From positions 556 to 64,555 of IMG/VR virus record IMGVR_UViG_3300031998_000083: a stretch of DNA of 64,000 bases; one strand, given 5' to 3'. The notes under the pieces were generated by a model. The model made no database searches, was not told where the DNA came from, and saw only the letters and a program-made list of their open reading frames with translations. Made by a program: the position numbers and the translations under genes. The stretch's first letter is position 1, and every line of letters begins with the position of its first letter. Below, in pieces: positions 1 through 64,000 of the stretch. Source of the stretch: a virus. Lineage: Duplodnaviria > Caudoviricetes.

Positions 1-65
1 ATCACTACGAAGAGCAGGCTGATGAGCAGCCTGTGTCTCTCCACGAAATTCTGAATCTTTTTCAT
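1..65 (-). CDS. 5' part (truncated by window) of probable major capsid protein; MKKIQNFVERHRLLISLLFVV...
   Basis: ATG at 65-63 after an A-rich initiation region; directly downstream of the scaffold-like gene; frame open to the window edge. Identity with the MCP at the right edge is inferred from gene order. Confidence 0.6.
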   Translation of the reverse strand, partial: MKKIQNFVERHRLLISLLFVV

Positions 66-1618: not shown

Positions 1619-1658
1619 AATTTTATGAAAAGATGACCGCCTGCAAGGCTTATCTTTG
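1619..1658 (+). promoter_or_regulatory. Late-class promoter for the portal operon
   Basis: AATTTTATGAAAAG (1619-1632, 11/14 match), 18-nt gap, TATCTTTG (1651-1658). Confidence 0.75.
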
Positions 1659-1680
1659 CACGAAAAAGAATAAGGTATAT

Positions 1681-3720
1681 ATGACAAAGCCCGTAAAGCC
1701 CGTGAAGCCGCTGCTTACCCTCGATGATGTCCGTCCGCTGCAGAAGGGCAGCCGGCGCGATACCGTCATGGAGCGCCGGAAGAATAATCTCCAGGAAGGG
1801 AAGTACGACCAGGCGCTGCTTGCCGAGTGCGCGCGCTCATGGAACAATAAGGACAATTTCCGTCAGGAGCGCCACCGCGTACTGGAGATGATCTTCGGCA
1901 ACCAGTGGGGCGAGGTGATCCACGTCTACGGACAGGGTGACATGACCGAGGAAAAGTGGATACAGATGCAGGGCCTCACCCCGCTGAAGAACAATATCAT
2001 GATCTCGCTCTGGATGTCCGTCTTCGGCATCCACGCCAAACAGGAGACGGAGCCTGTCTGCTATGCGCGCAACCAGGCGGCAAAGGAACTGTCCGACAAC
2101 CTGTCCGCGGCCATACAGACCAACTGGCAGAGCCAGTACATGTCAGAGAAGCTTGATTCCGGATTCGCCGAATTTATCATCTCATCGGCTGCCTTTATTC
2201 GCAACACGTTTGAGGAGCGTAACGAGCTGTTCGACTCCTACAACGATTTGATGAATCCCGACGTCATGTTCTGGGAGGGCGGCAGCGACCCGACACATCA
2301 GGATATCCACATGATCGGCTGCCTGCATGATATGACGCCCGAAAACATCTACTTCCACTTCGCCAAGTCCGAGTACGGCCTGACCATCGACGACCTCGAT
2401 GAGATCTTCCATATCGGCGAGGTGGGCAACCTGAACCGTCAGACTTCCCAGCAGGTCAACGAGAAGCACAGCTACGAAAACCTGAGCTTCTACCAGCCGT
2501 CCGACCTCGGCCTCTGCCGCGTCATCGAGGTGTGGCGCGAGGAGGTGAAGCCCCGCTACCAGTGTTTCGATCCGCTGGCCACCGATCAGATAGACAAGTA
2601 TTTCCGCTGCGAGAAGGAGGATCTGAAGTATGTCATCGACATCAACCGCCAGCGCAAGGCACTGTATGAGGAGCAGGGTGTACCCGTAGAGCAGCATGCC
2701 TATATCACGGCACGGGAGATCGTGGATAAGTACTGGCAGTATTACTTCATGGCTCCCGACGGACGGATCCTCTGTGAGGGAGAGTCGCCCTACGACTATA
2801 AGAGCCATCCCTTCACCATGTCGCTCTTCCCCTACGTCAACGGTGAGATCCATTCCTTCATGGGCAGCTTTATCGACCAGCAGAAGTATATCAACCGCAT
2901 GGTGATGATCAACGACTACGCCATCCGTACCTCGGCAAAGGGTATGACGTTCCTGCCACTGTCGCTGAAGCCGGAGGGCATGAGCATTGAGGACTACGCC
3001 AGGCAGAAATCTCGATTTGATGCCGTGTTCGTATATGATGACACCAAGCGGCAGACGGGTGCCAAGCCTGAGTTCTATACCCATTCGGCATTCAATACCG
3101 GTGCCAACGATATGCTGCAGATACAGCTCAACATGATCCACGATGTGTCGGGCGTGTCGGGCGCCCTCCAGGGCAAGACGCCCGCCAGCGGCACGGCTGC
3201 CTCTCGCTACGCCATGGAGGCGAATAACGCCACCACCACCATCTACCCGCTGATCAAGAAGTTCAACGGCTTCGAGGAGCGCGTCGCCATGAAGACGCTG
3301 ATCACGCTCCAGCAGTTCTACGAGGAGGGCCGCGACATCACGCCTAAGAAGTCCGACAAACAGGTGTTCTACCGTGCCAACGCCTGCCGTAACGTCAAGG
3401 CGAACATCTCCATCAAGAACTCAGCGGCCTCAGCTGCCTTCTACCAGATGGGTAACGATGTGCTTAACATGCTCTGGGAGGGTAAGGCCATCGACGTGCG
3501 TACCTACCTGAAGAATCTCGATGCCCCGTTTGCCGACAAGATCCTACAGGACATCGACAACTACCAGAATCAGGTAATGTCGGGACAGATGCCGTCCGCT
3601 CCCGTTCAGGTGCCAGGCGCAGACCAGCAGCAGGCACAGCTCGCCACGCAGCTCCTCAACGGCCCCGGACAGCTCTACACCCGAAATGCCCCCGACCAGC
3701 CATTCACCCTACAACAGTAA
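1681..3720 (+). CDS. Portal protein (P22/podovirus-like)
   Basis: ~680-aa ORF (open from 1633; 1681 fits the promoter) with portal-like features (G.QW, 'IDQQKYINR', 'SGVSGALQG', Q-rich C-terminus); followed by connector genes. Confidence 0.8.
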   Translation: MTKPVKPVKPLLTLDDVRPLQKGSRRDTVMERRKNNLQEGKYDQALLAECARSWNNKDNFRQERHRVLEMIFGNQWGEVIHVYGQGDMTEEKWIQMQGLTPLKNNIMISLWMSVFGIHAKQETEPVCYARNQAAKELSDNLSAAIQTNWQSQYMSEKLDSGFAEFIISSAAFIRNTFEERNELFDSYNDLMNPDVMFWEGGSDPTHQDIHMIGCLHDMTPENIYFHFAKSEYGLTIDDLDEIFHIGEVGNLNRQTSQQVNEKHSYENLSFYQPSDLGLCRVIEVWREEVKPRYQCFDPLATDQIDKYFRCEKEDLKYVIDINRQRKALYEEQGVPVEQHAYITAREIVDKYWQYYFMAPDGRILCEGESPYDYKSHPFTMSLFPYVNGEIHSFMGSFIDQQKYINRMVMINDYAIRTSAKGMTFLPLSLKPEGMSIEDYARQKSRFDAVFVYDDTKRQTGAKPEFYTHSAFNTGANDMLQIQLNMIHDVSGVSGALQGKTPASGTAASRYAMEANNATTTIYPLIKKFNGFEERVAMKTLITLQQFYEEGRDITPKKSDKQVFYRANACRNVKANISIKNSAASAAFYQMGNDVLNMLWEGKAIDVRTYLKNLDAPFADKILQDIDNYQNQVMSGQMPSAPVQVPGADQQQAQLATQLLNGPGQLYTRNAPDQPFTLQQ

Positions 3721-6545: not shown

Positions 6546-8777
6546 CTAAATGTCCGCTGCCGTTCCCGAGTGGCCCATCACCGTGCTGCCCGTATCCTCC
6601 ACCTTCCATGTAGGCAGCGGCATGCGCTGGCTCACCCACAGGCCGATGCCCGTTGACATCACGATATCGTCGTGGTTGTTCTTCCCGTCCACGTTACCCA
6701 TCGTGCCGTCCTCCTTGCGCTCATAGATCAGCAGCTCCTTGTATGCCTGCTCGTCAGGCTCCTCATACAGCTCATCCTCTATATACGATATGTAGTTGTC
6801 GATCACCTGCTCCTTGGTCAGCGTGTTCGTGTGGAAGCCGTAGACGTTGGTCACCTTCTGCGTCACCTTGTCTACCTCCGTCCTGCCGATATACAGGTTA
6901 GGATAGTAGTCTGCTATCTCGTCGATGATGGTGCCCGAGTGTTCGCCCTCCTCTTCCAGCCTGGCCTTGCGCGTGTCGGCGGTGTTCTTCTCTATCACCA
7001 GCATGGCGTCCTGGTAGAAGTGCGCCAGCTGTGCTGCCTTCCATGCCAGCATGTCGTGGCGTATGTGTCCCCGCCAGCGTGCCACCACCCTTGGGCGTCC
7101 TCCCATGTCGCGCATCATGCCGAAGCGGTCTATCACCGTCATCACCGTGAAGTCCGACGTCTTCGAGCGTCCTCCGATATCCACGCTCACCACATAGCGG
7201 TTATCCACCTTCAGGCAGTCGGGCATCTGCCATATCCTCAGCGCCTGGCCGTCGTCGAGGCGGTCAATGAGGTGTGCCGTCCTGATGGCCCTCGCGCCCT
7301 TGTCCTCTTCACCGATGATATTGCCAACGAAGATCGGAGCCTTCCTCATCTTCTGCTGCATGGCATCGACGGAGTACTTGTTGAAGATCAGGTTACCCGC
7401 GGCCATGAAGCACTCCACGTCGTCGCTGGGGAACTCGGTGGCGAAGTAGGAGTATGAACGGAACTCGTTGATCTTGTCCCGGCACCAGCTGATGGCCTCC
7501 AGCGAGGCGCCCTTCTGCCACAGCTGCCAGAAGTACTTGCCGCTCTGACGGTAGCCCTCCACCCAGTTCGGGTTATCCTTATTCAAATAGAGCCACCTGG
7601 CAAACTCCGTGGCCTTCTCCACATACGCGGGATCCTCCTCCACCTCGCGCCACGGTGTCTTGTTCCTAAAGATGCCCTGGTAGTTGGGGTTGAACTCCTG
7701 TCGGTACAGCTCGATCTTGAAGAACGGCACATACATCGCCTCCCACGCGCTGGGAATGTCGGGATCCTTCGCCTCCTGGTACATGTTATAGAAGAAGTCG
7801 CCCACGACGCGGCCTGACGACTCCATCACGATCATCGTGTCGGGACGGTTGCCGATGGTACCGTTGAGGGATGAAAGCACGCCCTCCGGCTTCTTCTGCT
7901 CCGTCTCCTTCCAGTAGGCCACCTCCGAGAGGTGCGCCATCTTCAGGTTCGCTGATCGGCTGGCGTCGTAGTTCTCATAGCTGGCCACCGTCGTGACGCT
8001 CTCCCTGACCACCTCGCCCGTGTGTGTCTTCACCACGAAGTCGGCGGGGCTGCCCTTGAAGGGCGCCGATTTCAACCGCTTACCCTTATAGCCTACACTC
8101 CATCCGGGCTGATTCTCCAGCGCCAGGTCGTACATGGCACGGATACGGATGGACGCTGCCGTCTGGTGTGCCATGATCGCCATGTTCCACCTGTGATGTC
8201 GGCAGTCCTGCATCCACTTGCCATAGAGCTGCGTCTCGGTGGATCCTCCGAACTGGCGCGCCTTGGGCATGACGATACGGATAGGCCTGCGCGCCAGTCG
8301 CATCTCCTCCTGCTTCTCCAGCAGCATCCGCTGGCCGTAGTTCAGGATATAGGGGATCACCGTGCCCTCCTCCTTGTCAACGATCTTGTAGATTATGGCA
8401 AAGTAGAAGGCGGGATCCTCCTCGCTGCGCGCAAGCATCATGGCATACACCACGTCCTGGTAGCGCTCGTCGGTGTACTCCCAGCCCATCTCGTCGGTGA
8501 TGTACTTGCGGATGGAGCCTCGCTTGACCAGCTTCTTGATGATGATGTTGTGCTTGACACAGCGCTCGGGCATGTACTGTGTCCTGATGGGTGAGTCGGG
8601 GATCTTGACCTTTATTCTCGGCCCTGGCGCCCCGCGTCCCGTCACGGGATTGAAGCCCTCGAAGATCTCCCTGTTGCGCCGGATATTCTCCTTGACGATT
8701 TCGAGGTAGATCTTCGTTGCGGCCTCATCCACGGTTAAGGTCCTATTTGAGGAAATGCTTCCACCGCCATCTGCCAT
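6546..8777 (-). CDS. terL: Terminase large subunit
   Basis: Walker A-like KARQFGGST, Walker B AHLSEVAYW, RNase H-like nuclease VSVDIGG, C-terminal HDDIVMS. Confidence 0.92.
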   Translation of the reverse strand: MADGGGSISSNRTLTVDEAATKIYLEIVKENIRRNREIFEGFNPVTGRGAPGPRIKVKIPDSPIRTQYMPERCVKHNIIIKKLVKRGSIRKYITDEMGWEYTDERYQDVVYAMMLARSEEDPAFYFAIIYKIVDKEEGTVIPYILNYGQRMLLEKQEEMRLARRPIRIVMPKARQFGGSTETQLYGKWMQDCRHHRWNMAIMAHQTAASIRIRAMYDLALENQPGWSVGYKGKRLKSAPFKGSPADFVVKTHTGEVVRESVTTVASYENYDASRSANLKMAHLSEVAYWKETEQKKPEGVLSSLNGTIGNRPDTMIVMESSGRVVGDFFYNMYQEAKDPDIPSAWEAMYVPFFKIELYRQEFNPNYQGIFRNKTPWREVEEDPAYVEKATEFARWLYLNKDNPNWVEGYRQSGKYFWQLWQKGASLEAISWCRDKINEFRSYSYFATEFPSDDVECFMAAGNLIFNKYSVDAMQQKMRKAPIFVGNIIGEEDKGARAIRTAHLIDRLDDGQALRIWQMPDCLKVDNRYVVSVDIGGRSKTSDFTVMTVIDRFGMMRDMGGRPRVVARWRGHIRHDMLAWKAAQLAHFYQDAMLVIEKNTADTRKARLEEEGEHSGTIIDEIADYYPNLYIGRTEVDKVTQKVTNVYGFHTNTLTKEQVIDNYISYIEDELYEEPDEQAYKELLIYERKEDGTMGNVDGKNNHDDIVMSTGIGLWVSQRMPLPTWKVEDTGSTVMGHSGTAADI

Positions 8778-9264
8778 ACGCGAAACCTCCCAACAGACAG
8801 TAAAGGTGCAGGCACCAGTTTATGCTTGGTATGACCATGCCTATCAGCGCAAAGGGCACGGTCTTATAACAGAACTCCCATATCTTCTCGCGCATGATAT
8901 CGTCGCCTGCAGGCCAGAAGCTCTGGCAGCAGACGCCCCACTTTGCGCCCCAAATGGCGAATATCACGCCAGAGAATCCCATCGTCACCCCGTCCATCGG
9001 CCATAACGGCCCCACGACGGGAAGGAATGTCGCCACGAAGGCGATCACCGCCGAGGCGAAGATATACAGGCGCCGCTTCATGATCCACAGCACGAACAGG
9101 TTGCCCGCCAGGTGCCACACGTTAGCATGGCTGACCATCGACAGCAGGTGATCCGCTGGCGACATGTCACCGCTGGCGTAGCCCGTCTGCCGTCCGAAGG
9201 CATACCAGGCCACCATCACAGCCGTCAGCACGGCCTTCTCTATCGTCAGCCTATGCCGTCTCAT
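8743..9264 (-). CDS. Rhomboid-family intramembrane serine protease
   Basis: HANVWHLAGN (HxxxxHxxxN), GFSG (catalytic Ser) and LHLYCLLGG (catalytic His) within hydrophobic helices. Confidence 0.85.
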   Translation of the reverse strand: MRRHRLTIEKAVLTAVMVAWYAFGRQTGYASGDMSPADHLLSMVSHANVWHLAGNLFVLWIMKRRLYIFASAVIAFVATFLPVVGPLWPMDGVTMGFSGVIFAIWGAKWGVCCQSFWPAGDDIMREKIWEFCYKTVPFALIGMVIPSINWCLHLYCLLGGFAYGRWRWKHFLK

Positions 9265-9727
9265 ACTCCACCATGCTTGCCGTTTTCCTTGCCGCTGCCC
9301 TGCGGATCGTGTCTACCTTCACGCGCTTCACCGTCTTCTCGCGCCATATCTGCCCCATGCGGTCCGTGTCGATGTAGAACCGCGGGGCAGGCTCCTGAAT
9401 GGCATGGCGTACCAGCTCATAGAGCGAGCTGTACCAGAACTTCTCGGTCTGCTTCAGCCTCAGCACGGTGTCGAGCAGGTCGTAGTACATCTGCTGCATC
9501 AGCGGACTCATCTTCTCCAGCCTGCTGTGGTCGCCTCGGGTCATCGGCGATATCACCTGCAGCGCCCATCGGGCGTCGATATAGTATCTCGGTGCCTGGT
9601 GCTTGACGGTCAGCTCGTAGGCCTCCGTCTGTGTCCGGCAGCTGTACTGCCCCACGATCTCACGGTACACCCGCATGAGGTCGTTCTTCATCTCCTCCTT
9701 GTGGTTTGTCTTGCATTTCATTGTCAC
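9251..9727 (-). CDS. Conserved phage protein with duplicated (P)APR(Y/F)YID motif
   Basis: Internal duplication QAPRYYID / PAPRFYID; overlaps the rhomboid start; SD-like AAGGAGG before two candidate ATGs. Confidence 0.7.
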   Translation of the reverse strand: MTMKCKTNHKEEMKNDLMRVYREIVGQYSCRTQTEAYELTVKHQAPRYYIDARWALQVISPMTRGDHSRLEKMSPLMQQMYYDLLDTVLRLKQTEKFWYSSLYELVRHAIQEPAPRFYIDTDRMGQIWREKTVKRVKVDTIRRAAARKTASMVEYETA

Positions 9728-9743: not shown

Positions 9744-12536
9744 TTATCTCATGTTGTCCCCTCTCCGCTCCTGGCTTGTAATGATCGTACCACTCAGCCG
9801 CTCCGTCGGCAGCATCTTGATATAGAGCGCCAGCCTGTAGTAGCGTGCGGCAGCACCGAAGCGCGACTCGTCCCTATACCATTTCCGCAGGTCGCTGGAT
9901 ACATACACTTGTGTCTTTACGCAACTCAGATTGTTACCATTGTTATCCTTCTCCTGCCACATGCCAACGTTCATCAGTTCCCGTAGAGACGCCTGGCTCA
10001 CAGGGCCTGCAAGCTTTAACGGGCGTGTCAGAACAAATGCCAGCTGACGGTTTCCGACCTCATCCTCGCGCAACTTCTCATAGAGTGAGAATACCTTTCT
10101 TACAGTCACTGTCTGAGGTTCCTCTCCTTCCTCTTGTATTATCTCAGTGGTATCACCCTGCAGAAAATAGTCCGGATAGTTGTTGACGGCATTCTTTATT
10201 GTTGCTGGCAGCACAGTCTTTGATATAGTCCCGTCCTGGATATTGTAGACAAAGGCAAAATCGTACAGGCTGTTATCAACCATGATGATTCGTTGGTCAA
10301 TATAGTCGTAAGCCATGACCAAGCCGTTTGAGCTTATGTATTTGAGGAAGTTCTCATCATCATAGCACGATCCTACTACGCCAGACCAGTCTGTGCCAGT
10401 TGTCAAGTTTGGCAACTTTTCCTTATAATCAAATATTGGACCGTTCATCTGCGCGCTCACACACTTCACGCTCTCACCGACAAGTACCATCAGGCCTTTC
10501 TTTGATACGAAGTATATGGCTCCGTCTGTCTCGATGATCGATGACGGGTTAATACACACTTCGCGCGAAAGCTCGTCAGACCGCTGATATACACCCTCGT
10601 TATCCAGTCGCAATGTGGAGATGCCCCTCTCCGAGAACACGACCAGCGGGTGTATGCCGTGTTCCTCCTGTCCGAGTGCCACCGTCTGCGAAGCCATGCC
10701 GAGGATCCTGCCCCTGCCAACCGTCACATGGCCTTTGGCCGTAAACACCCAGGGATTGTCAACCTCGCTGACGATTATCTTTCCCTCCAGCAGTTCAGGC
10801 GTGTTGTTCAGTGTCGGTGCTGTCGCCACGACACCGCTCGGCCATGCGCCGTAGGAGTCGGGCAGGTGGCCGAAGTAATAGGCACCGTTCAGATACGGGT
10901 GTTCCTTCAGTGCAAGCGTGTATATCCTGTTGGTTCCCACAAACACCTCTGCCTTGAATGCCCTCGGGTCGGGATAGTAAAACCAAATGTCGCCTATCTC
11001 ATACGAAGAGCCGTCCGTCACCGACACCACCTTTGTGCCGTCCTCCGTCCTGATGTGAACGTAGAATTTCCTGTTCTGGCTGTCGGTATGTGCCGTGTAT
11101 GAGAATTTCCCGAAGCCCCAGAAGATGCTGCGCTTCACGTCGGCCAGGTGAAGGCGGTTGTTGTATGCCTTGATCACCTGTGGCCTCATGTAGGAGTTAG
11201 AGAAGTAGTCGTCGTTCTTCAGCGTCTGGTTGTTCACGAGATTCTTCAGCGCTCCGCGGTCTATCTTGCTTGTGGCGTCCTTCTGTGAGGTGTCAAGCAT
11301 CTCGTTGAAGTCCAGCTCGATGATCTTATAGAACACCGATTTCTCCAGCAGCCTGTGTGTCATCTCCCCCTCACTCAGCAGCGACGGCTGGTAGAAGGTC
11401 TGCCAGGTATTTGCATCGTTATCTACGAATGCGGGCATGCTGGCCAGCACGCCATATTGCGGCATGCATGCGTCCACGGTGCCAAGCGTCGTCGTCATGC
11501 TGTTGGGCCTGACGCAGTTGTTGATGATATTCCAGCCGCCGTTCAGATCGAAGCTCTTCACCTCCTCCGAGACGAATATATCCACTCCGCTGATGATGTC
11601 CTCCCAGTCCGAGAGGTCCTGTGCCCCGTAGTTTGTGCTGTAATACAGCTTGGCACAGTAGGGCCGGTAGGCCGTTATCCAGTAGCCGCCAGCGTCACCG
11701 TCTATCACCTTCGGGCCGTCCGTCTCAGGATCATAGGCAAAGATGTGCCAGTTGTTCAGCACCGTCGGCAGCAGAAGGAAGGGATTCGAGATTCGCGCAT
11801 GGGTTCCGTCGTAGAGCCTGACGGCAGACCGCGCCCAGAACGGGAAGGCAAACCGCTTCTTCTCCTTCACCCAGTCCAGCTGCGCCGACACGATGCCGAC
11901 AAGCGCATCCTTTCCTATCTCGTAGCCGCTATCCCACTTCCTGTCGTTCTCTGTGTCTTCGCTACCCCATACGTTGCCGGCATATTCATCTATATAGCCA
12001 GGACGTGGTATTTTAAGCAATATCTCACCGTGCATGCCAGGCACACGTCCGTACTTGTTCGGGTTTGCGTCCGTACCGCTCAGATAGCCGAAGTCACCGA
12101 GTGAGAAATCGACTCTGATGTCAGGGATCTCAGCCCCGAGGTAATTGTATGTTCCTCCCTTCCAGAGGAAATATCCCATGCCTGACGAAGAGGCCACGAT
12201 CAGCGTGTTGCCAATCGACTGTATCTGCAACGTCGCCGCATTGACGGCCATCATGTGGTTGTAGGCTGCTTCGGAGCTTGTGTCAAGCGTCCAGTAGAGC
12301 GTCGAGTTGGTGACCTTCCTCAGAATGTACCGCGTCGTATCGTTGTGGCTGTGAACATACACCAGCAGATACCCGCTTACCACCGTCATCTTCTCCTTCG
12401 GCTGCACTATCGGCTTCAGCTCCTGGTTGTCGGTGGTCAGGTTGATGCACTCTGCCAGCTCTCCGTCCTTGCAGAGGAAGTCACTCGGCGTCCTGGTGAT
12501 TCCTGCCTGATAGGTGATACGCTTCTCCTCGTTCAT
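9744..12536 (-). CDS. Tail tubular B / nozzle (stabilisation) protein
   Basis: ~930 aa, beta-rich; start 'GITRTPSD...DGEL.ECINL', YNNRLHLA, GRILGM, EVCINP patterns resemble P22 gp10/T7 gp12-like proteins. Confidence 0.7.
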   Translation of the reverse strand: MNEEKRITYQAGITRTPSDFLCKDGELAECINLTTDNQELKPIVQPKEKMTVVSGYLLVYVHSHNDTTRYILRKVTNSTLYWTLDTSSEAAYNHMMAVNAATLQIQSIGNTLIVASSSGMGYFLWKGGTYNYLGAEIPDIRVDFSLGDFGYLSGTDANPNKYGRVPGMHGEILLKIPRPGYIDEYAGNVWGSEDTENDRKWDSGYEIGKDALVGIVSAQLDWVKEKKRFAFPFWARSAVRLYDGTHARISNPFLLLPTVLNNWHIFAYDPETDGPKVIDGDAGGYWITAYRPYCAKLYYSTNYGAQDLSDWEDIISGVDIFVSEEVKSFDLNGGWNIINNCVRPNSMTTTLGTVDACMPQYGVLASMPAFVDNDANTWQTFYQPSLLSEGEMTHRLLEKSVFYKIIELDFNEMLDTSQKDATSKIDRGALKNLVNNQTLKNDDYFSNSYMRPQVIKAYNNRLHLADVKRSIFWGFGKFSYTAHTDSQNRKFYVHIRTEDGTKVVSVTDGSSYEIGDIWFYYPDPRAFKAEVFVGTNRIYTLALKEHPYLNGAYYFGHLPDSYGAWPSGVVATAPTLNNTPELLEGKIIVSEVDNPWVFTAKGHVTVGRGRILGMASQTVALGQEEHGIHPLVVFSERGISTLRLDNEGVYQRSDELSREVCINPSSIIETDGAIYFVSKKGLMVLVGESVKCVSAQMNGPIFDYKEKLPNLTTGTDWSGVVGSCYDDENFLKYISSNGLVMAYDYIDQRIIMVDNSLYDFAFVYNIQDGTISKTVLPATIKNAVNNYPDYFLQGDTTEIIQEEGEEPQTVTVRKVFSLYEKLREDEVGNRQLAFVLTRPLKLAGPVSQASLRELMNVGMWQEKDNNGNNLSCVKTQVYVSSDLRKWYRDESRFGAAARYYRLALYIKMLPTERLSGTIITSQERRGDNMR

Positions 12537-12560
12537 AGAAATAATAGTTTTATCTGGCGG

Positions 12561-12568
12561 CAAAGATA
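12561..12568 (-). promoter_or_regulatory. Bacteroidota -7 promoter element for the nozzle-rhomboid-terL operon
   Basis: TATCTTTG on the minus strand; only ATTAT of the late upstream box is present at the N18 position. Confidence 0.6.
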
Positions 12569-12747: not shown

Positions 12748-13245
12748 ATGGCACAGAAATTCAGAAAGATCCAGAACACCAACGACGAGTCGACAGCCTA
12801 CGGCAAATGGTTTGCCACGGCCGTCTACGACCAGAAATTCATCACCACCGCCGAGCTGGCCCACTACATCCAGGACCAGTGTTCGCTGAAGGAGAGCGAC
12901 ATCAAGGCTGCTCTCGACGAGCTTGGCAAGGCCATGAAGCACTACTTCCAGATGGGACAGAAGGTAAAGCTCGAGGGCATCGGCATCTTCAAGGTGGGCT
13001 TCTCCAGCATCGGCGCTGCCACCAAGGACGACTGCGGAGCCAACTCCATCACCACCCGCCGAGTGATCTTCACGCCCGAGACCGAGCGTATCGTGGTCGG
13101 CCAGAACATCAACAAGAAGGGCAAGATCAAGCAGAAGTACGTCATCGCCAAGACGCTCGTCAAGGACGTGGACTTCGAAGAGACCTTCGACACCAGTCTC
13201 AAACCCGATACCGATCCCGCCGGAGGCGAGGGAGGCAACGGCTGA
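12748..13245 (+). CDS. HU/IHF-like DNA-binding protein (long Bacteroidota type)
   Basis: 'ITTAELAHYI...SLKESDIKAAL...GQKVKLEGIGIFKVGF...RRVIFTP'; own TAACTTTG promoter near 12685. Confidence 0.85.
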   Translation: MAQKFRKIQNTNDESTAYGKWFATAVYDQKFITTAELAHYIQDQCSLKESDIKAALDELGKAMKHYFQMGQKVKLEGIGIFKVGFSSIGAATKDDCGANSITTRRVIFTPETERIVVGQNINKKGKIKQKYVIAKTLVKDVDFEETFDTSLKPDTDPAGGEGGNG

Positions 13246-13338
13246 TCATCGCAATATTGAAACTTCACGATGAGGATCTGCAGCGGCAGGTCCTCTTTTT
13301 TGTGCGCCATTAAGATATCTGTAACGGGTCGTTCTGCC

Positions 13339-13426
13339 TATCGGAACACCTCGTTTCCCTTATCGGAACAACCCGTTCCAGGCATTGGAACAACCCGCTA
13401 CAGGCATTGAAACACGACGAAGCTGG
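13339..13426. repeat. Degenerate 22-bp tandem repeat x4
   Basis: Units start at 13339, 13361, 13383 and 13405 (tatcggaaca.../cattggaaca...). Confidence 0.7.
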
Positions 13427-13433
13427 AATTTTC

Positions 13434-13652
13434 TTACGGCTCCCCGAGATAATCCACGATTACCGCCACCTGAGCGGCAGGATAGTGCTTGTCGTTGACG
13501 TTGTAGTTGGGAAACTTCCTCAGTTCGCCCATCAGATCCCTGCACCGGCGCACGTCTCGACGGAACAGCTCCACCGCCGACTCGTCCCTCGGCGTGTCCG
13601 GCCAGTATTTACGGGCCAGCTCCAGTTTGGTATAACTCCTGATCTCAAACAT
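13434..13652 (-). CDS. DUF4248-family protein
   Basis: 'FEIRSYTKLELARKYWP...Y...QVAVIVDYLGEP' family pattern. Confidence 0.8.
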   Translation of the reverse strand: MFEIRSYTKLELARKYWPDTPRDESAVELFRRDVRRCRDLMGELRKFPNYNVNDKHYPAAQVAVIVDYLGEP

Positions 13653-13791
13653 AACTTATTAGATTTTCGTTTGTGGCACTATTGCCAGGGCAAAGGTACG
13701 ACGTAAAAAGGCCGTCAGCGCGTGTTTTTGCCCGTTGTTTACGGTTATATCTGACTGATTGCCGAAAATTCTTACTACCTTTGCATCCGCT

Positions 13792-14031: not shown

Positions 14032-14391
14032 TTAGTAAATACGGAAGATGGAAGAAATCAGAAGAGCAAGTAAGAACAAAGCAGCAAAGCCAATAATCAG
14101 CTTTAGAAAGATGAAAAAAGCTTTGGCCGGTTTGTTTATGCAATAACACACTAAACGTATGATAATAGAAGGAAGCATAAAAACCAGCATCATGGGCCAT
14201 CCCAATATACATGCTGCCAACAACATCGACACAACAAATAGAAAATTAAAGCCTGACGAAACAGTTACTGGTATTACGATGGATAAATAAATAATGACTG
14301 ATCCTATACAATAAAACCATTTATCGTGTTCTTTCAGATAGCCAATGTAACTATCTGCAAATTTATCCAACTTATCAATAACACTACCCAT
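14032..14391 (-). CDS. AT-rich small membrane protein (moron)
   Basis: 119 aa, 2-3 hydrophobic helices, low GC, own TATCTTTG (14418-14411). Confidence 0.7.
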   Translation of the reverse strand: MGSVIDKLDKFADSYIGYLKEHDKWFYCIGSVIIYLSIVIPVTVSSGFNFLFVVSMLLAACILGWPMMLVFMLPSIIIRLVCYCINKPAKAFFIFLKLIIGFAALFLLALLISSIFRIY

Positions 14392-35739: not shown

Positions 35740-36231
35740 ATGGAAGAGTTAAGAACTGTCGTCGTGACCGTTATCGGTGCTATCCTGACAATGCTGGCAC
35801 CCATACAGAATTTCATGTACGCCATGGTGCTGCTGTTTTCGCTCAACTTCATCTTCGGCATCGTGGCGGCGAGAGTCAACAAGGAGGGATGGAAGACAAA
35901 GAAGGCCCTCATGTTTTTTGTTTACTGCGCTATTTTCTTCGTAACGGCCTGTGCAGTATTCATCATCGGCCACTTTATGGGGGAACACCAGCAGGCCATC
36001 ACCGTCGTTAAGATCCTATGCTATCTGGCCGTCTATGTGTTCGGCACAAACATCTTCCGGAACCTGTGCCAGATCGTACCGCAAAACTCAACCTGGTACA
36101 AGCTCTTCGACCTCTGCTATTACATGTTGTCGGTGAAGTTCATCGAGAAGTTCCCGTTCATCAAGAAACGTCAGGAAGATCTTGCAGGCGCCAGTTCGCA
36201 CAATACCATTCTCGACAAGGACGATAACTGA
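35740..36231 (+). CDS. Holin
   Basis: Multi-TM 163-aa protein directly before the endolysin. Confidence 0.75.
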   Translation: MEELRTVVVTVIGAILTMLAPIQNFMYAMVLLFSLNFIFGIVAARVNKEGWKTKKALMFFVYCAIFFVTACAVFIIGHFMGEHQQAITVVKILCYLAVYVFGTNIFRNLCQIVPQNSTWYKLFDLCYYMLSVKFIEKFPFIKKRQEDLAGASSHNTILDKDDN

Positions 36232-36232
36232 T

Positions 36233-36700
36233 ATGAGGCGTATTGACAGGATCTTCGTACATTGCACGGCTTCGTGGCAGGAGACGACCACCGAGGAAAG
36301 CCTGCGGGCAGAGTTCAGGAAGAACGGCTGGCGCAATCCTGGCTACCATTATGTAGTGAAACCCGACGGTAACATCATCGAGATGCTGGCCGAGAACAGG
36401 GTGGCCAACGGTGTGAAGAACTACAATCAGAACAGCATCCACGTCGCATGGATCGGCGGACTGATAAAAGCTGGCGGCAAGATCCTCCCGTGCGACAATC
36501 GCAAGCCTCAGCAGAAGCAGGCGCTCTTCGACCTGCTGACCAAGCTGAAGCTGAAATATCGCAACGCCATCATCCTCGGACACCGCGATATCTCGCCCGA
36601 CCTGAACCATAATGGCATCGTGGATCCATGGGAGCGTATCAAGCAGTGTCCCTGCTTCGACGCGATGGTGGAATATATGGACATCAACAAAATAGGATAG
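36233..36700 (+). CDS. Endolysin, N-acetylmuramoyl-L-alanine amidase (amidase_2/T7 type)
   Basis: IFVHCTA, GYHYVV, GHRD and K.CPCFD zinc-amidase motifs. Confidence 0.93.
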   Translation: MRRIDRIFVHCTASWQETTTEESLRAEFRKNGWRNPGYHYVVKPDGNIIEMLAENRVANGVKNYNQNSIHVAWIGGLIKAGGKILPCDNRKPQQKQALFDLLTKLKLKYRNAIILGHRDISPDLNHNGIVDPWERIKQCPCFDAMVEYMDINKIG

Positions 36701-36703
36701 CTT

Positions 36704-37309
36704 ATGTCACCACAACAGCTGTTTGGATATTACCAGAGGCAGGTCACCGACCGAAGCGGATGCGGCGGTCCTGTGATCTTCATGTGTCTGTTGATTGCAT
36801 TCTTTCTTGTGGGATGCAGGACGATTACCAACGAGGAGACCAATACGGAGAGTCACCGCATAGAAAGCCTGGTGGATAAAGTGGACAGCCTCATCAGCAA
36901 GACTGCCACCGTGAAGCAGGATTCCGTCTGGCGCGAGACCATCATCAAGGAGCTGCAGAGCATCCGCGAGAAGAGCGACACCAGCCACACCATCGTCGTC
37001 GACACAGCCGGCAAGGTCATCAAGGAGACGATCGTCATCAACAATACCAGGGAGGTGACCAGCGAGAGCGACCGTCAGGAGATTGTCGGCATGATCCACC
37101 GTCTGGAAAAGCTCGACTCTACCCTATCCGTACAGAACACTCAGATCAGCAAGCTCGACTCGCTCCTGAAGGAGAAGACCAAAGAGACCACCATCGAGAA
37201 GAAACAGCCGTGGAAATCGTTTACTCAGCATGTAAAAGGTATCATCATAGGGATCCTGTTAAGCGTAATAGCGTTCCTTGTTCTTCGCTTGAAGAAGCTC
37301 CTGCCGTGA
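36704..37309 (+). CDS. Probable unimolecular spanin
   Basis: Lipobox FLVGC, coiled coil and C-terminal TM helix; last gene of the lysis cassette. Confidence 0.65.
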   Translation: MSPQQLFGYYQRQVTDRSGCGGPVIFMCLLIAFFLVGCRTITNEETNTESHRIESLVDKVDSLISKTATVKQDSVWRETIIKELQSIREKSDTSHTIVVDTAGKVIKETIVINNTREVTSESDRQEIVGMIHRLEKLDSTLSVQNTQISKLDSLLKEKTKETTIEKKQPWKSFTQHVKGIIIGILLSVIAFLVLRLKKLLP

Positions 37310-37512: not shown

Positions 37513-37686
37513 TTACTCAGGCTTCACGAAGAGGTTGCACGCCTCGATGATGGCAGCACCAACGATGACGATGGCCGAGTTGATGGCCGTGGCGTACTCA
37601 GGCGAGGTGTAGGTGACCACTGCCACGCCTACAGTCTGTAGCGCTCCGACGATACCGGAGATCAATGCGAATGTTTTCTTGCTCAT
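37513..37686 (-). CDS. 57-aa two-helix membrane protein (not in the ORF track)
   Basis: MSKKTFALISGIVGALQTVGVAVVTYTSPEYATAINSAIVIVGAAIIEACNLFVKPE; typical codons and A-rich leader. Confidence 0.75.
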   Translation of the reverse strand: MSKKTFALISGIVGALQTVGVAVVTYTSPEYATAINSAIVIVGAAIIEACNLFVKPE

Positions 37687-41394: not shown

Positions 41395-41505
41395 CTATCT
41401 CTTTTTAACCAGGTAATATATAACCACGACGATCATAATAATACTTAACACAAATGCCGTCAATGAATACGGCCATGGAAGTTCTGCCAGTCTAAATGTT
41501 GTCAT
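41395..41505 (-). CDS. 36-aa single-TM peptide (not in the ORF track)
   Basis: MTTFRLAELPWPYSLTAFVLSIIMIVVVIYYLVKKR; stop 2 nt before the phosphoesterase start; GAGGAG upstream. Confidence 0.55.
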   Translation of the reverse strand: MTTFRLAELPWPYSLTAFVLSIIMIVVVIYYLVKKR

Positions 41506-41584
41506 ACTATTCCTCCTCATTAATATAAATACTGTTTATTGCCGAAAAATCTCCCAATTTCCGAAGCTTATTAAGTTCTTTAAT

Positions 41585-62708: not shown

Positions 62709-64000
62709 TTAGACGTTGCCGGTGTACACAACCCACTGGTCGGAATCCTCGTCCCACTGCCATACCTTGTCACCGTCGAGTACGACGCCAGTGTACTCAG
62801 ACCAGCTGTCGGTCTCGTAGATGTAGTACTTTCCTTCCTCGTAGGTCACGGTGTCTGGAGCGGTACCGACCACGATATCCTGAGTAGGAGCGATGATGTC
62901 GCCCTCTGCGGGATCGGCGGGCAGTGCGCTCACCTTCGTCACCTCGCCGTCCTCGGAGAGCAGGCCGTCGAAGGAGATGATCATGCCGTCCGTCGGGTTG
63001 CTGGGGATGGCGTCCACCAACTCGATAGGCTCGGTGTCGTCGCTGATGTTCTTGTCGATGATCTGGTCAGAGGGACCGACGAGCAGCGAGTTCTGTCCGC
63101 GGAGTGCCAGGGCGCCGATCTCAATATAGGTATAGCGCATGGCCTCGCGTGCATCGTTGCCGGCCTTGTTCAGGTCGATGTTCGACTCCTTCTTCACCTT
63201 ATGGTAGTAGCGGGCGATCTGGAGGGGCACTGCGACGCAGAAGTCCTCATAGCCGATCTCATCCATCATCGGGGCGTATGTGATATGCAGCGTACCGAAG
63301 TTGGAGACGAGGTCGCGCACCACGATGCCGTAGTCGGTCTTCTTGTGGTCGTACTTGGCGTCCATGTGCTTGATGATCTCCTCCATGTTGGCAATCTCGG
63401 CCACCTTGTTCTTACCGCACAGCAGGTAGGCCTCGGTGGTCTCGGCATACTTGGTGAACATGATCTTGCCGATGGCGGTGATGTGTGCGTACTTGAACTT
63501 GCCTTCGATGCCCAGCGTGTTCGTCAGCTGGCGGAGGATACCCTCGGAGGTATATACATACTCCTCGTTGCCGTCCTTCGTGCGCATGAGGTAGCGGGTC
63601 TGAACGCCGTCCCACAGGTCGCGCTCGAACTTCTTGGAGAAGTTGGCCAGTGCCTGGTCGCGCATCTCGTCGAATCCCCACGGGGTCTTCTTCAGGATCT
63701 CACGCTCATGGTCGGTGATAAGGATATTGAAGAGGCGCTTCTGCAGATATACACGGGTCGAGCGGGGCTGGCTGTTGTCGGGAGATACGATCTTCTGCGA
63801 CTCGGAGCCTGCATAGCTGGAGACATACAGCTCGGTGTTGGCGGGGATGGCAGGCACGAGGTAGTCGCGCATGTAGTCGCTCATGGTTCCCTCCACCTTT
63901 GCCTTACCGTTCAGCGGACGGAGCGTCACCTCGTCCTCGTCGGCTGCGCTGACATACAGCACAAGGTCGCCGCTGGTCTTGGTGGTGCTGCCCCTCTGGT
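62709..64000 (-). CDS. Major capsid protein (5'-truncated by the window)
   Basis: Frame open to 64000; 'YLQKRLFNILIT', 'FERDLWDG', 'GILRQL', 'SNFGTLHI', 'EAMRYTYIE' resemble an HK97-fold Bacteroidota MCP. Confidence 0.8.
   Translation of the reverse strand, partial: QRGSTTKTSGDLVLYVSAADEDEVTLRPLNGKAKVEGTMSDYMRDYLVPAIPANTELYVSSYAGSESQKIVSPDNSQPRSTRVYLQKRLFNILITDHEREILKKTPWGFDEMRDQALANFSKKFERDLWDGVQTRYLMRTKDGNEEYVYTSEGILRQLTNTLGIEGKFKYAHITAIGKIMFTKYAETTEAYLLCGKNKVAEIANMEEIIKHMDAKYDHKKTDYGIVVRDLVSNFGTLHITYAPMMDEIGYEDFCVAVPLQIARYYHKVKKESNIDLNKAGNDAREAMRYTYIEIGALALRGQNSLLVGPSDQIIDKNISDDTEPIELVDAIPSNPTDGMIISFDGLLSEDGEVTKVSALPADPAEGDIIAPTQDIVVGTAPDTVTYEEGKYYIYETDSWSEYTGVVLDGDKVWQWDEDSDQWVVYTGNV

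Follow-up and report, generated by a model that had tools for sequence, protein, structure and literature searches.

A rhomboid protease gene overlapping terL and a signal-like leader on the major capsid protein of a tailed phage: evidence for and against a functional link

The DNA analysed here, a stretch of 64,000 nucleotides referred to below as the window, comprises bases 556–64,555 of the 64,555-bp IMG/VR record IMGVR_UViG_3300031998_000083, from a tailed phage (Duplodnaviria; Caudoviricetes) of gut Bacteroidales. Two of its genes are the subject of this report: a rhomboid protease gene at 8743–9264 on the minus strand, and the gene for the major capsid protein (MCP), which starts at position 65 on the same strand and encodes an N-terminal leader resembling a signal peptide. 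Among known tailed phages, capsid maturation is cytoplasmic and relies on soluble prohead proteases or on no protease at all. A sequence-only reading of the window had proposed that in this phage the capsid subunits are instead tethered to the membrane and released by the phage rhomboid. The two termini of the record share 103 nt with a single mismatch (window positions 63896–63998 against the first 103 bases of the record, L003:1–103), which shows the genome to be circularly permuted and, in essence, complete. Unlike this result, the IMG/VR entry for the same record is given as linear and 81% complete. The capsid gene runs across the record junction: its start lies at 1–65 (-), and its C-terminal 429 codons were located at 62709–63998 (-) by blastp to MCP homologues and by the terminal overlap.

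The product of 8743–9264 (-) has 173 amino acids and six transmembrane (TM) helices and matches the Pfam rhomboid family PF01694 with 32.1 bits against a cut-off of 22.6; a six-frame scan of the whole record found one rhomboid only (30.9 bits). Its GFSG motif occupies residues 96–99 in TM4, with Ser98 as the catalytic serine, while the histidine of TM6 is H153 and the HxxxN motif of TM2 corresponds to H51/N55. In alignments of 14 and 21 phage homologues the residues H46, H51, N55, G96, S98, H153, and G160 are invariant, and the 21 aligned rhomboids share only 26–62% identity (the alignments reach down to 25%). An AlphaFold2 (AF2) model built from the 21-sequence alignment had a pLDDT of 91 and a pTM of 0.87. 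When it was compared with the PDB using Foldseek, the top 38 matches were all GlpG or iRhom (probability 1.0), with TM-scores of 0.5–0.58 and a best E-value of only 2.5e-3. Lysine and arginine residues number 2–13 at each terminus and in loops 2-3 and 4-5, and 0–3 in the remaining loops; because of this bias, the predicted topology in the inner membrane is GlpG-like, with both termini cytoplasmic and the active site facing the periplasm.

GlpG of E. coli and H. influenzae (MEROPS S54, PF01694; PDB 2IC8, 2NR9, 5F5J) has in common with the phage protein the six-helix core, the GxSG serine in TM4, the TM6 histidine, the TM2 HxxxN motif, and N-in/C-in topology. The phage protein differs in its small size, in lacking a cytoplasmic domain, in a short L1 loop without the WR motif, in its low identity to GlpG (14–18%), and in being encoded by a phage within a packaging operon. 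To judge from its sequence, it is a minimal six-helix rhomboid serine protease, predicted to be catalytically competent, and the enzyme appears intact and under selection. The sequence-only reading had recognised an intact rhomboid from the GFSG serine and a histidine, and the Pfam score, the invariant catalytic residues, and the GlpG-like fold all agree with it. Membership of the rhombosortases (TIGR03902) was rejected, as the window rhomboid gave no match and its relatives scored 13–30 bits against a cut-off of 84.

The rhomboid gene belongs to a packed minus-strand string that runs from a 939-aa protein (9744–12563; phrog_32516) through P3fam (158 aa, 9251–9727; phrog_27246, function unknown) and the rhomboid to terL (743 aa, 6546–8777). 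The P3fam open reading frame (ORF) overlaps the start of the rhomboid by 14 nt, and the end of the rhomboid lies over the terL start, as had been pointed out before, with 35 nt shared. The rhomboid is evidently made from the packaging operon, in the order P3fam, rhomboid, terL. The identity of TerL rests on a weak PHROG terminase match and on tblastn hits with about 38% identity to terminase-like genes of three Bacteroides phages. The same P3fam-rhomboid-terL order is retained in the cultured Bacteroides phages BF1-TP2, BS-TP4, and BKO1-TP3, whose MCPs (gp56 in BF1-TP2, gp11 in BS-TP4) are leader-bearing. In GenBank the terL homologue of these three phages is labelled 'tail spike protein' (L001, PQ571263.1, 20034–22061; L002, PQ571277.1, 20013–22109). 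Across 88 related loci, the rhomboid ends between -136 and +12 nt from the terL start in about two-thirds. A rule that the rhomboid always accompanies terL does not hold in general: about 28 loci place it some 3 kb away on the opposite strand, and the two genes lie apart in L296 and G001. In G001 (the record of L013, with a terL 93% identical), the rhomboid is found at 13223–13750, about 18 kb from terL, and unrelated genes lie upstream of terL, which reflects either a rearrangement or an assembly chimera.

P3fam is the constant neighbour of the rhomboid, being adjacent to it in 137 of the 146 loci that hold both. Its candidacy as a part of a rhomboid module was rejected, since 131 loci without a rhomboid retain P3fam directly upstream of terL, and an apparent P3fam-rhomboid fusion in L346 proved to be an over-extended ORF. 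Because it stands so constantly just upstream of terL or the rhomboid, P3fam is possibly a small terminase or a late regulator. It carries an internal repeat (..APR(Y/F)YID..), and a protein atlas search with it returned viral hypothetical proteins only and no known family. According to gene maps, the head module keeps one order throughout, and the slot between P3fam and terL either holds the rhomboid or cleanly lacks it.

The ORF that begins at 65 (-) runs for 21 codons before the window ends, and the additional 555 bases of the record extend it to 218 amino acids. Its full-length homologues in L009 and L013 are 96–98% identical and 614 amino acids long. The Pfam family SU10_MCP (PF17236) is matched by nine of ten family members (best E-value 2.9e-35), including L013 with 35.3 bits against a cut-off of 24.1, and the profile matches the capsid chain of PDB 9in6 (2.7e-9). 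The gene follows one for a scaffold-like protein (265 aa, 274–1071, -; phrog_22323, function unknown), which was named for its position, the same as that of the approximately 250-aa gene found upstream of the MCP gene in all relatives. By these sequence and profile matches, the ORF encodes an SU10-type major capsid protein with an HK97-type core; it had earlier been called the probable MCP, and SU10_MCP, PDB 9in6, and the gene position all bear this out.

The MCP gene opens with MKKIQNFVERHRLLISLLFVV..., and the N-terminus of the protein reads MKKIQNFVERHR-LLISLLFVVMAVLTGGTGICLA-EGAAVVDPDP... The ATG at 65 is conserved, and its use is supported by an alignment in which the MCPs of relatives begin MKK(I/F)QNF; an alternative ATG lies at 101. 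A basic n-region is followed by about 20 uncharged residues leading to ...TGGTGICLA|EG, so the basic and then hydrophobic N-terminus noticed in the first 21 codons is confirmed in the completed gene as well as in relatives. In general plan, the leader starts with a basic n-region, continues with about 20 uncharged residues and a helix-breaking stretch rich in glycine, and ends in (M/L/V)-A. Beyond it come a disordered acidic linker of about 65 amino acids and then the HK97-type core, an arrangement also seen in an AF2 model of moderate confidence (pLDDT 63.5) with a helix at residues 8–37, disorder to about residue 110, and a folded core. Mean Kyte-Doolittle hydropathy over 15 residues of the leader is 2.1–3.0. 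Among approximately 210 distinct leaders, median net charges are +3 for the n-region and -4 for the 30 amino acids after the leader, the uncharged stretch has a median length of 20 residues (interquartile range 18–25), and glycine is enriched 5–7 residues before the (M/V/L)-Ala end. When the other structural proteins of the window were checked for such a leader, none besides the MCP had one. A lipoprotein signal was rejected, as relatives do not conserve the cysteine found close to the leader's end.

Directly upstream of the MCP gene lies a 59-aa ORF (98–277, -), a leaderless basic paralogue of the MCP linker. It has 51–59% identity to MCP residues 45–96, shares with the capsid linker the motif DP.P..DPV.P...AGQ.L.GTQ.S.TQ.RRG.L, and begins precisely where the leader would end. 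Counterparts of 54–65 amino acids are kept in most close relatives (L004:10384–10560, L005:12992–13156, L008:17975–18172, L010:16648–16827, and L013:18464–18643). The ORF may have been left behind when a leader cassette was inserted, or it may encode a small protein mimicking the mature capsid N-terminus.

The phage rhomboid is found almost only in genomes whose MCP bears the leader. An IMG/VR scan with the rhomboid alignment returned 74 loci, in which every N-terminally complete MCP was leader-bearing, across lineages that are 20–25% identical. A profile search of 1.84 billion cluster representatives yielded 1051 members of the MCP family; among the 141 that were full-length out of the best 150, the leader is present in 117 and absent in 24, and the tree of MCP cluster representatives has at least 10 changes of leader state. 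The co-occurrence test itself was sampled by capsid protein and not by rhomboid. Leaderless clade 1 comprises 80 loci, every one without a leader, and not one (0/80) shows a rhomboid within 10 kb. Nor was a rhomboid found in any of 42 whole records of this clade, of which 21 reach a completeness of at least 90%; three complete records were searched again with a hidden Markov model (HMM) built from 76 rhomboids, and the remaining whole-record negatives are to be read with the caveat that the standard search missed the divergent rhomboid of L296. Likewise, none of 44 loci with distant leaderless SU10-type capsid genes has a rhomboid. The leader-bearing sisters of clade 1 (A6 set) include 27 loci with both leader and rhomboid, and in a further leader-bearing clade (A8 set) 26 loci have the rhomboid no farther than 10 kb away. 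A related clade carries it at a distance of more than 10 kb from the MCP gene; there it is present in 22 of 32 records, including all nine that are at least 90% complete, and another branch contributes 10 loci with leader and rhomboid. The head modules of the rhomboid-plus and the leaderless groups differ only in the rhomboid gene between P3fam and terL, a slot from which the leaderless sister clade has lost the rhomboid cleanly. The phage rhomboid is thus nested within leader-bearing phages, while the leader extends to many more phages than the rhomboid does.

Several observations from the same survey weigh against a tight functional coupling. Two sister loci of clade 1, L243 and L246, have the leader and no rhomboid, and the record of the latter (G067; 59 kb, terminal repeats, 100% complete) contains no rhomboid at E≤1 with the 76-rhomboid HMM. 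In the branch with 10 doubly positive loci, eight others have the leader without a rhomboid, and the leader-bearing record G058 (93% complete) was again negative at E≤1 with the same HMM. In prophages of Muribaculaceae, Paramuribaculum, and relatives, 79 loci were examined, of which 33 have the leader and 46 lack it; no phage-type rhomboid was found within 10 kb of any of them. Conversely, L296 (8113–11470) holds an intact, very divergent rhomboid beside a leaderless MCP, the sole locus of this kind. Its MCP is 69% identical to the leaderless clade, much closer than its neighbours (39% for scaffold and P3fam, 48% for portal), which suggests that the capsid gene was recently swapped. Searches with the L296 rhomboid and P0038 in metagenomes, and with P0052 and P0153 in IMG/VR, gave no matches. 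Same-family capsid genes are frequent in prophages, with 509 tblastn-confirmed matches; the packaging module differs in the prophage loci L422–L501 (GTDB, mostly Muribaculaceae/Paramuribaculum), and some prophage MCPs have a longer leader with an amphipathic segment of 20–25 amino acids in front.

When both traits were placed on a tree of 70 capsid proteins, dereplicated and of known genomic context, leader and rhomboid were gained jointly once and lost jointly once, the rhomboid was lost alone two to three times, and the leader is absent beside a kept rhomboid once. An independent-pairs test had only three contrasts (sign test p ~0.5), a further point against coupling, and it has no power because independent gain and loss events are few. 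The association is real in raw counts and is not demonstrated as co-evolution; shared descent alone could produce the pattern. The co-occurrence that the sequence-only reading had put forward as a check is therefore borne out in one direction, in that the rhomboid occurs almost only with leader-bearing MCPs, and fails in the other, in that the leader often occurs without a rhomboid, with L296 as an exception and three pairs as the whole of the formal test.

On balance, the best reading, to which we assign a probability of roughly 0.4, makes the rhomboid an accessory protease whose use depends on the capsid leader. The rhomboid would cut the leader off capsid subunits held at the membrane or, alternatively, would clear leader peptides left by cutting. 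Either way, it would supplement host enzymes, whether a host rhomboid or signal peptidase I, and these would do the same job in relatives without a phage rhomboid. A control search showed that Bacteroides encodes its own rhomboid. What remains of the release of membrane-tethered capsids by the phage rhomboid, as originally proposed, is the enzyme, the MCP, a leader confined to the MCP, and the near-exclusive pairing; what does not stand is an obligatory role, and the predicted topology and the power of the test also count against it. Since the leader persists in complete genomes without a rhomboid, the phage enzyme cannot be obligatory for the leader's fate. The broader claim, that capsid subunits of a large group of Bacteroidales phages are tethered to the inner membrane by a cleavable leader and released by a rhomboid encoded by either phage or host, seems unlikely, if not strongly so.

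The features of the leader itself fit cleavage by a rhomboid only in part. The bacterial rhomboid substrates known so far, canonically single-pass proteins of type I/III, have their N-terminus in the periplasm and their C-terminus in the cytoplasm (PMC2941825), whereas the leader is predicted, from charges only (+3 against -4), to lie N-in/C-out and so departs from the canonical orientation. The rhomboid recognition motif calls for a small P1 residue and hydrophobic P4 and P2' residues, with helix-destabilising residues close by (PMC2941825). In the leaders, P1 is alanine in 90%, to some extent because of how the anchor was chosen; A/V/L/M predominate at P4, with helix-breaking glycine enriched at P5–P7; and P2' is mostly G/A/D/T and not hydrophobic as the motif requires. 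With the heuristic anchoring, the leaders follow the -3/-1 rule (P3 A/L/V/G, P1 A), a pattern that fits signal peptidase I equally well. A further difficulty is that an N-in signal with an acidic flank should export the capsid core, which clashes with every model; capsid assembly and DNA packaging are cytoplasmic. As for orientation, it has been argued that the type II protein Star can be cleaved if a flexible stretch loops the site back (PMC2941825), and by analogy the Gly-rich stretch and disordered linker would allow loop-back cleavage of the leader.

Nor does the lack of a prohead protease help the case. Six-frame searches of the whole record with Pfam S78 (PF04586), S49 (PF01343), ClpP (PF00574), and S77 (PF03420) gave no match at E≤1, and the searches were positive in control genomes, so it was right that no protease of the HK97, ClpP, or S49 type is recognisable here. 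P22-like phages have no need for a prohead protease. Because the module is P22-like, with a P22-type portal (695 aa, 1633–3720, +; Pfam P22_portal 1.3e-20, PHROG portal 4.6e-43) and the scaffold-like gene, and so needs no protease, the missing enzyme is no argument for rhomboid maturation. Leaderless relatives without a rhomboid share this P22-like head layout.

Known systems offer partial parallels. In the AarA/TatA pair of Providencia stuartii, a rhomboid removes a short N-terminal piece beside a single TM helix, and the P1 residue is small in both TatA and the leader; TatA is N-out, and it loses eight residues and keeps its helix, whereas the leader is predicted N-in, its whole helix must go, and its P2' is not hydrophobic (PMC3712462, PMC2941825). 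The rhombosortase/GlyGly-CTERM system (TIGR03902) pairs a rhomboid-family enzyme with one class of sorting signal, in which a Gly-rich motif is followed by a TM helix and then a basic cluster; the capsid leader is the mirror image of this signal, with basic cluster, helix, and Gly-rich stretch at the N-terminus and not the C-terminus. Signals of the Bacteroidetes Sec/signal peptidase I pathway share with the leader the n/h/c plan, the small or aliphatic -3 residue, the alanine at -1, and an acidic mature start (PMC5837995, PMC10653852). However, most Bacteroidetes signal peptidase I substrates expose glutamine at +1 (PMC5837995), which follows the predicted cut in only two of 210 leaders, a point in favour of the accessory role of the rhomboid, and the cargo here is a capsid protein acting in the cytoplasm. 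The proteases of HK97 (gp4, S78), lambda (C, S49), and T4 (gp21, S77) remove an N-terminal capsid segment during head assembly, as would happen here if the accessory role is correct; unlike these enzymes, whose families are absent from the record, the phage rhomboid is membrane-embedded and not packaged in the prohead. T4 proheads can initiate on the inner membrane. Predicted signal peptides have been noted on capsid proteins of P. gingivalis phages, with their removal assigned to prohead proteases (PMC10367356), and no paper was found that connects phage rhomboids with capsids.

The strongest rival holds that the pairing reflects shared descent: the leader is handled by host enzymes (signal peptidase I or another protease of the host) or is not cut, and the rhomboid cleaves some other single-pass membrane protein, such as a lysis, superinfection-exclusion, or transport component of phage or host (cf. 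AarA-TatA). This is quite possible, if short of probable. The commonness of the leader without a phage rhomboid, the rhomboid kept beside a leaderless MCP in L296, the predicted orientation, which is the wrong one for a rhomboid substrate, the only partial recognition motif (PMC2941825), and the small number of independent events all favour it, and the window does encode other small membrane proteins (14032–14391, 37513–37686, and 41395–41520, all -). Yet no alternative membrane protein is linked to the rhomboid, and close genomes with and without it have head modules that differ by the rhomboid alone. The rhomboid also sits in the packaging and head module, distant from the lysis genes (~35.7–37.3 kb), and while one leaderless genome has kept it, no leaderless lineage has.

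A second rival, in which the leader is never inserted into a membrane and acts as an internal assembly or scaffolding-type segment (similar to a delta domain) buried in the procapsid, with the rhomboid irrelevant, appears improbable. Cytoplasmic assembly and packaging do contradict a membrane-spanning N-in signal, and leaderless members of the family assemble with the same module; the presence of a separate scaffold-like gene in the family and the absence of a prohead protease are likewise in its favour. However, the n, h, and c regions of a signal peptide are all present in the leader, along with high hydropathy and an acidic flank, and in this the leader is unlike delta domains, which in HK97 are coiled coils. 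A buried segment would moreover leave the restriction of the rhomboid to leader-bearing genomes unexplained. Finally, a catalytically dead pseudoprotease of the iRhom or derlin type, serving as a membrane chaperone or adaptor, is suggested by the iRhom structures among the fold matches and by the short L1 loop without the WR motif usual for rhomboids, but was rejected as very improbable because all 21 sequences, low as their identity is, keep the serine, the histidine, and the oxyanion His/Asn unchanged.

If the accessory role of the rhomboid is correct, a membrane step would be added to head assembly, and rhomboid biology would gain a rare defined bacterial substrate. If tethering and release should be true, capsid assembly would be membrane-gated, a route for which known tailed phages offer no parallel, and in the leaders a viral rhomboid would have its first class of natural substrates. 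If instead the link is false, the retention of a signal-like leader by a cytoplasmic shell protein must still be explained, as must the target of the phage rhomboid. The leader by itself is very common in gut Bacteroidales phages and prophages. The three phages in culture that have both leader and rhomboid, BF1-TP2, BS-TP4, and BKO1-TP3, make the proposed role testable.

Other features of the window complete the picture of the locus. The minus-strand capsid string starts with a gene for a 150-aa protein (from 1549, -), and the portal gene is divergently oriented with respect to this capsid operon. Far from the head genes, a likely lysis cassette occupies 35740–37309 and ends with a 201-aa protein (36704–37309, +) that has an N-terminal lipobox-like FLVGC motif and a C-terminal TM helix and resembles a unimolecular spanin.

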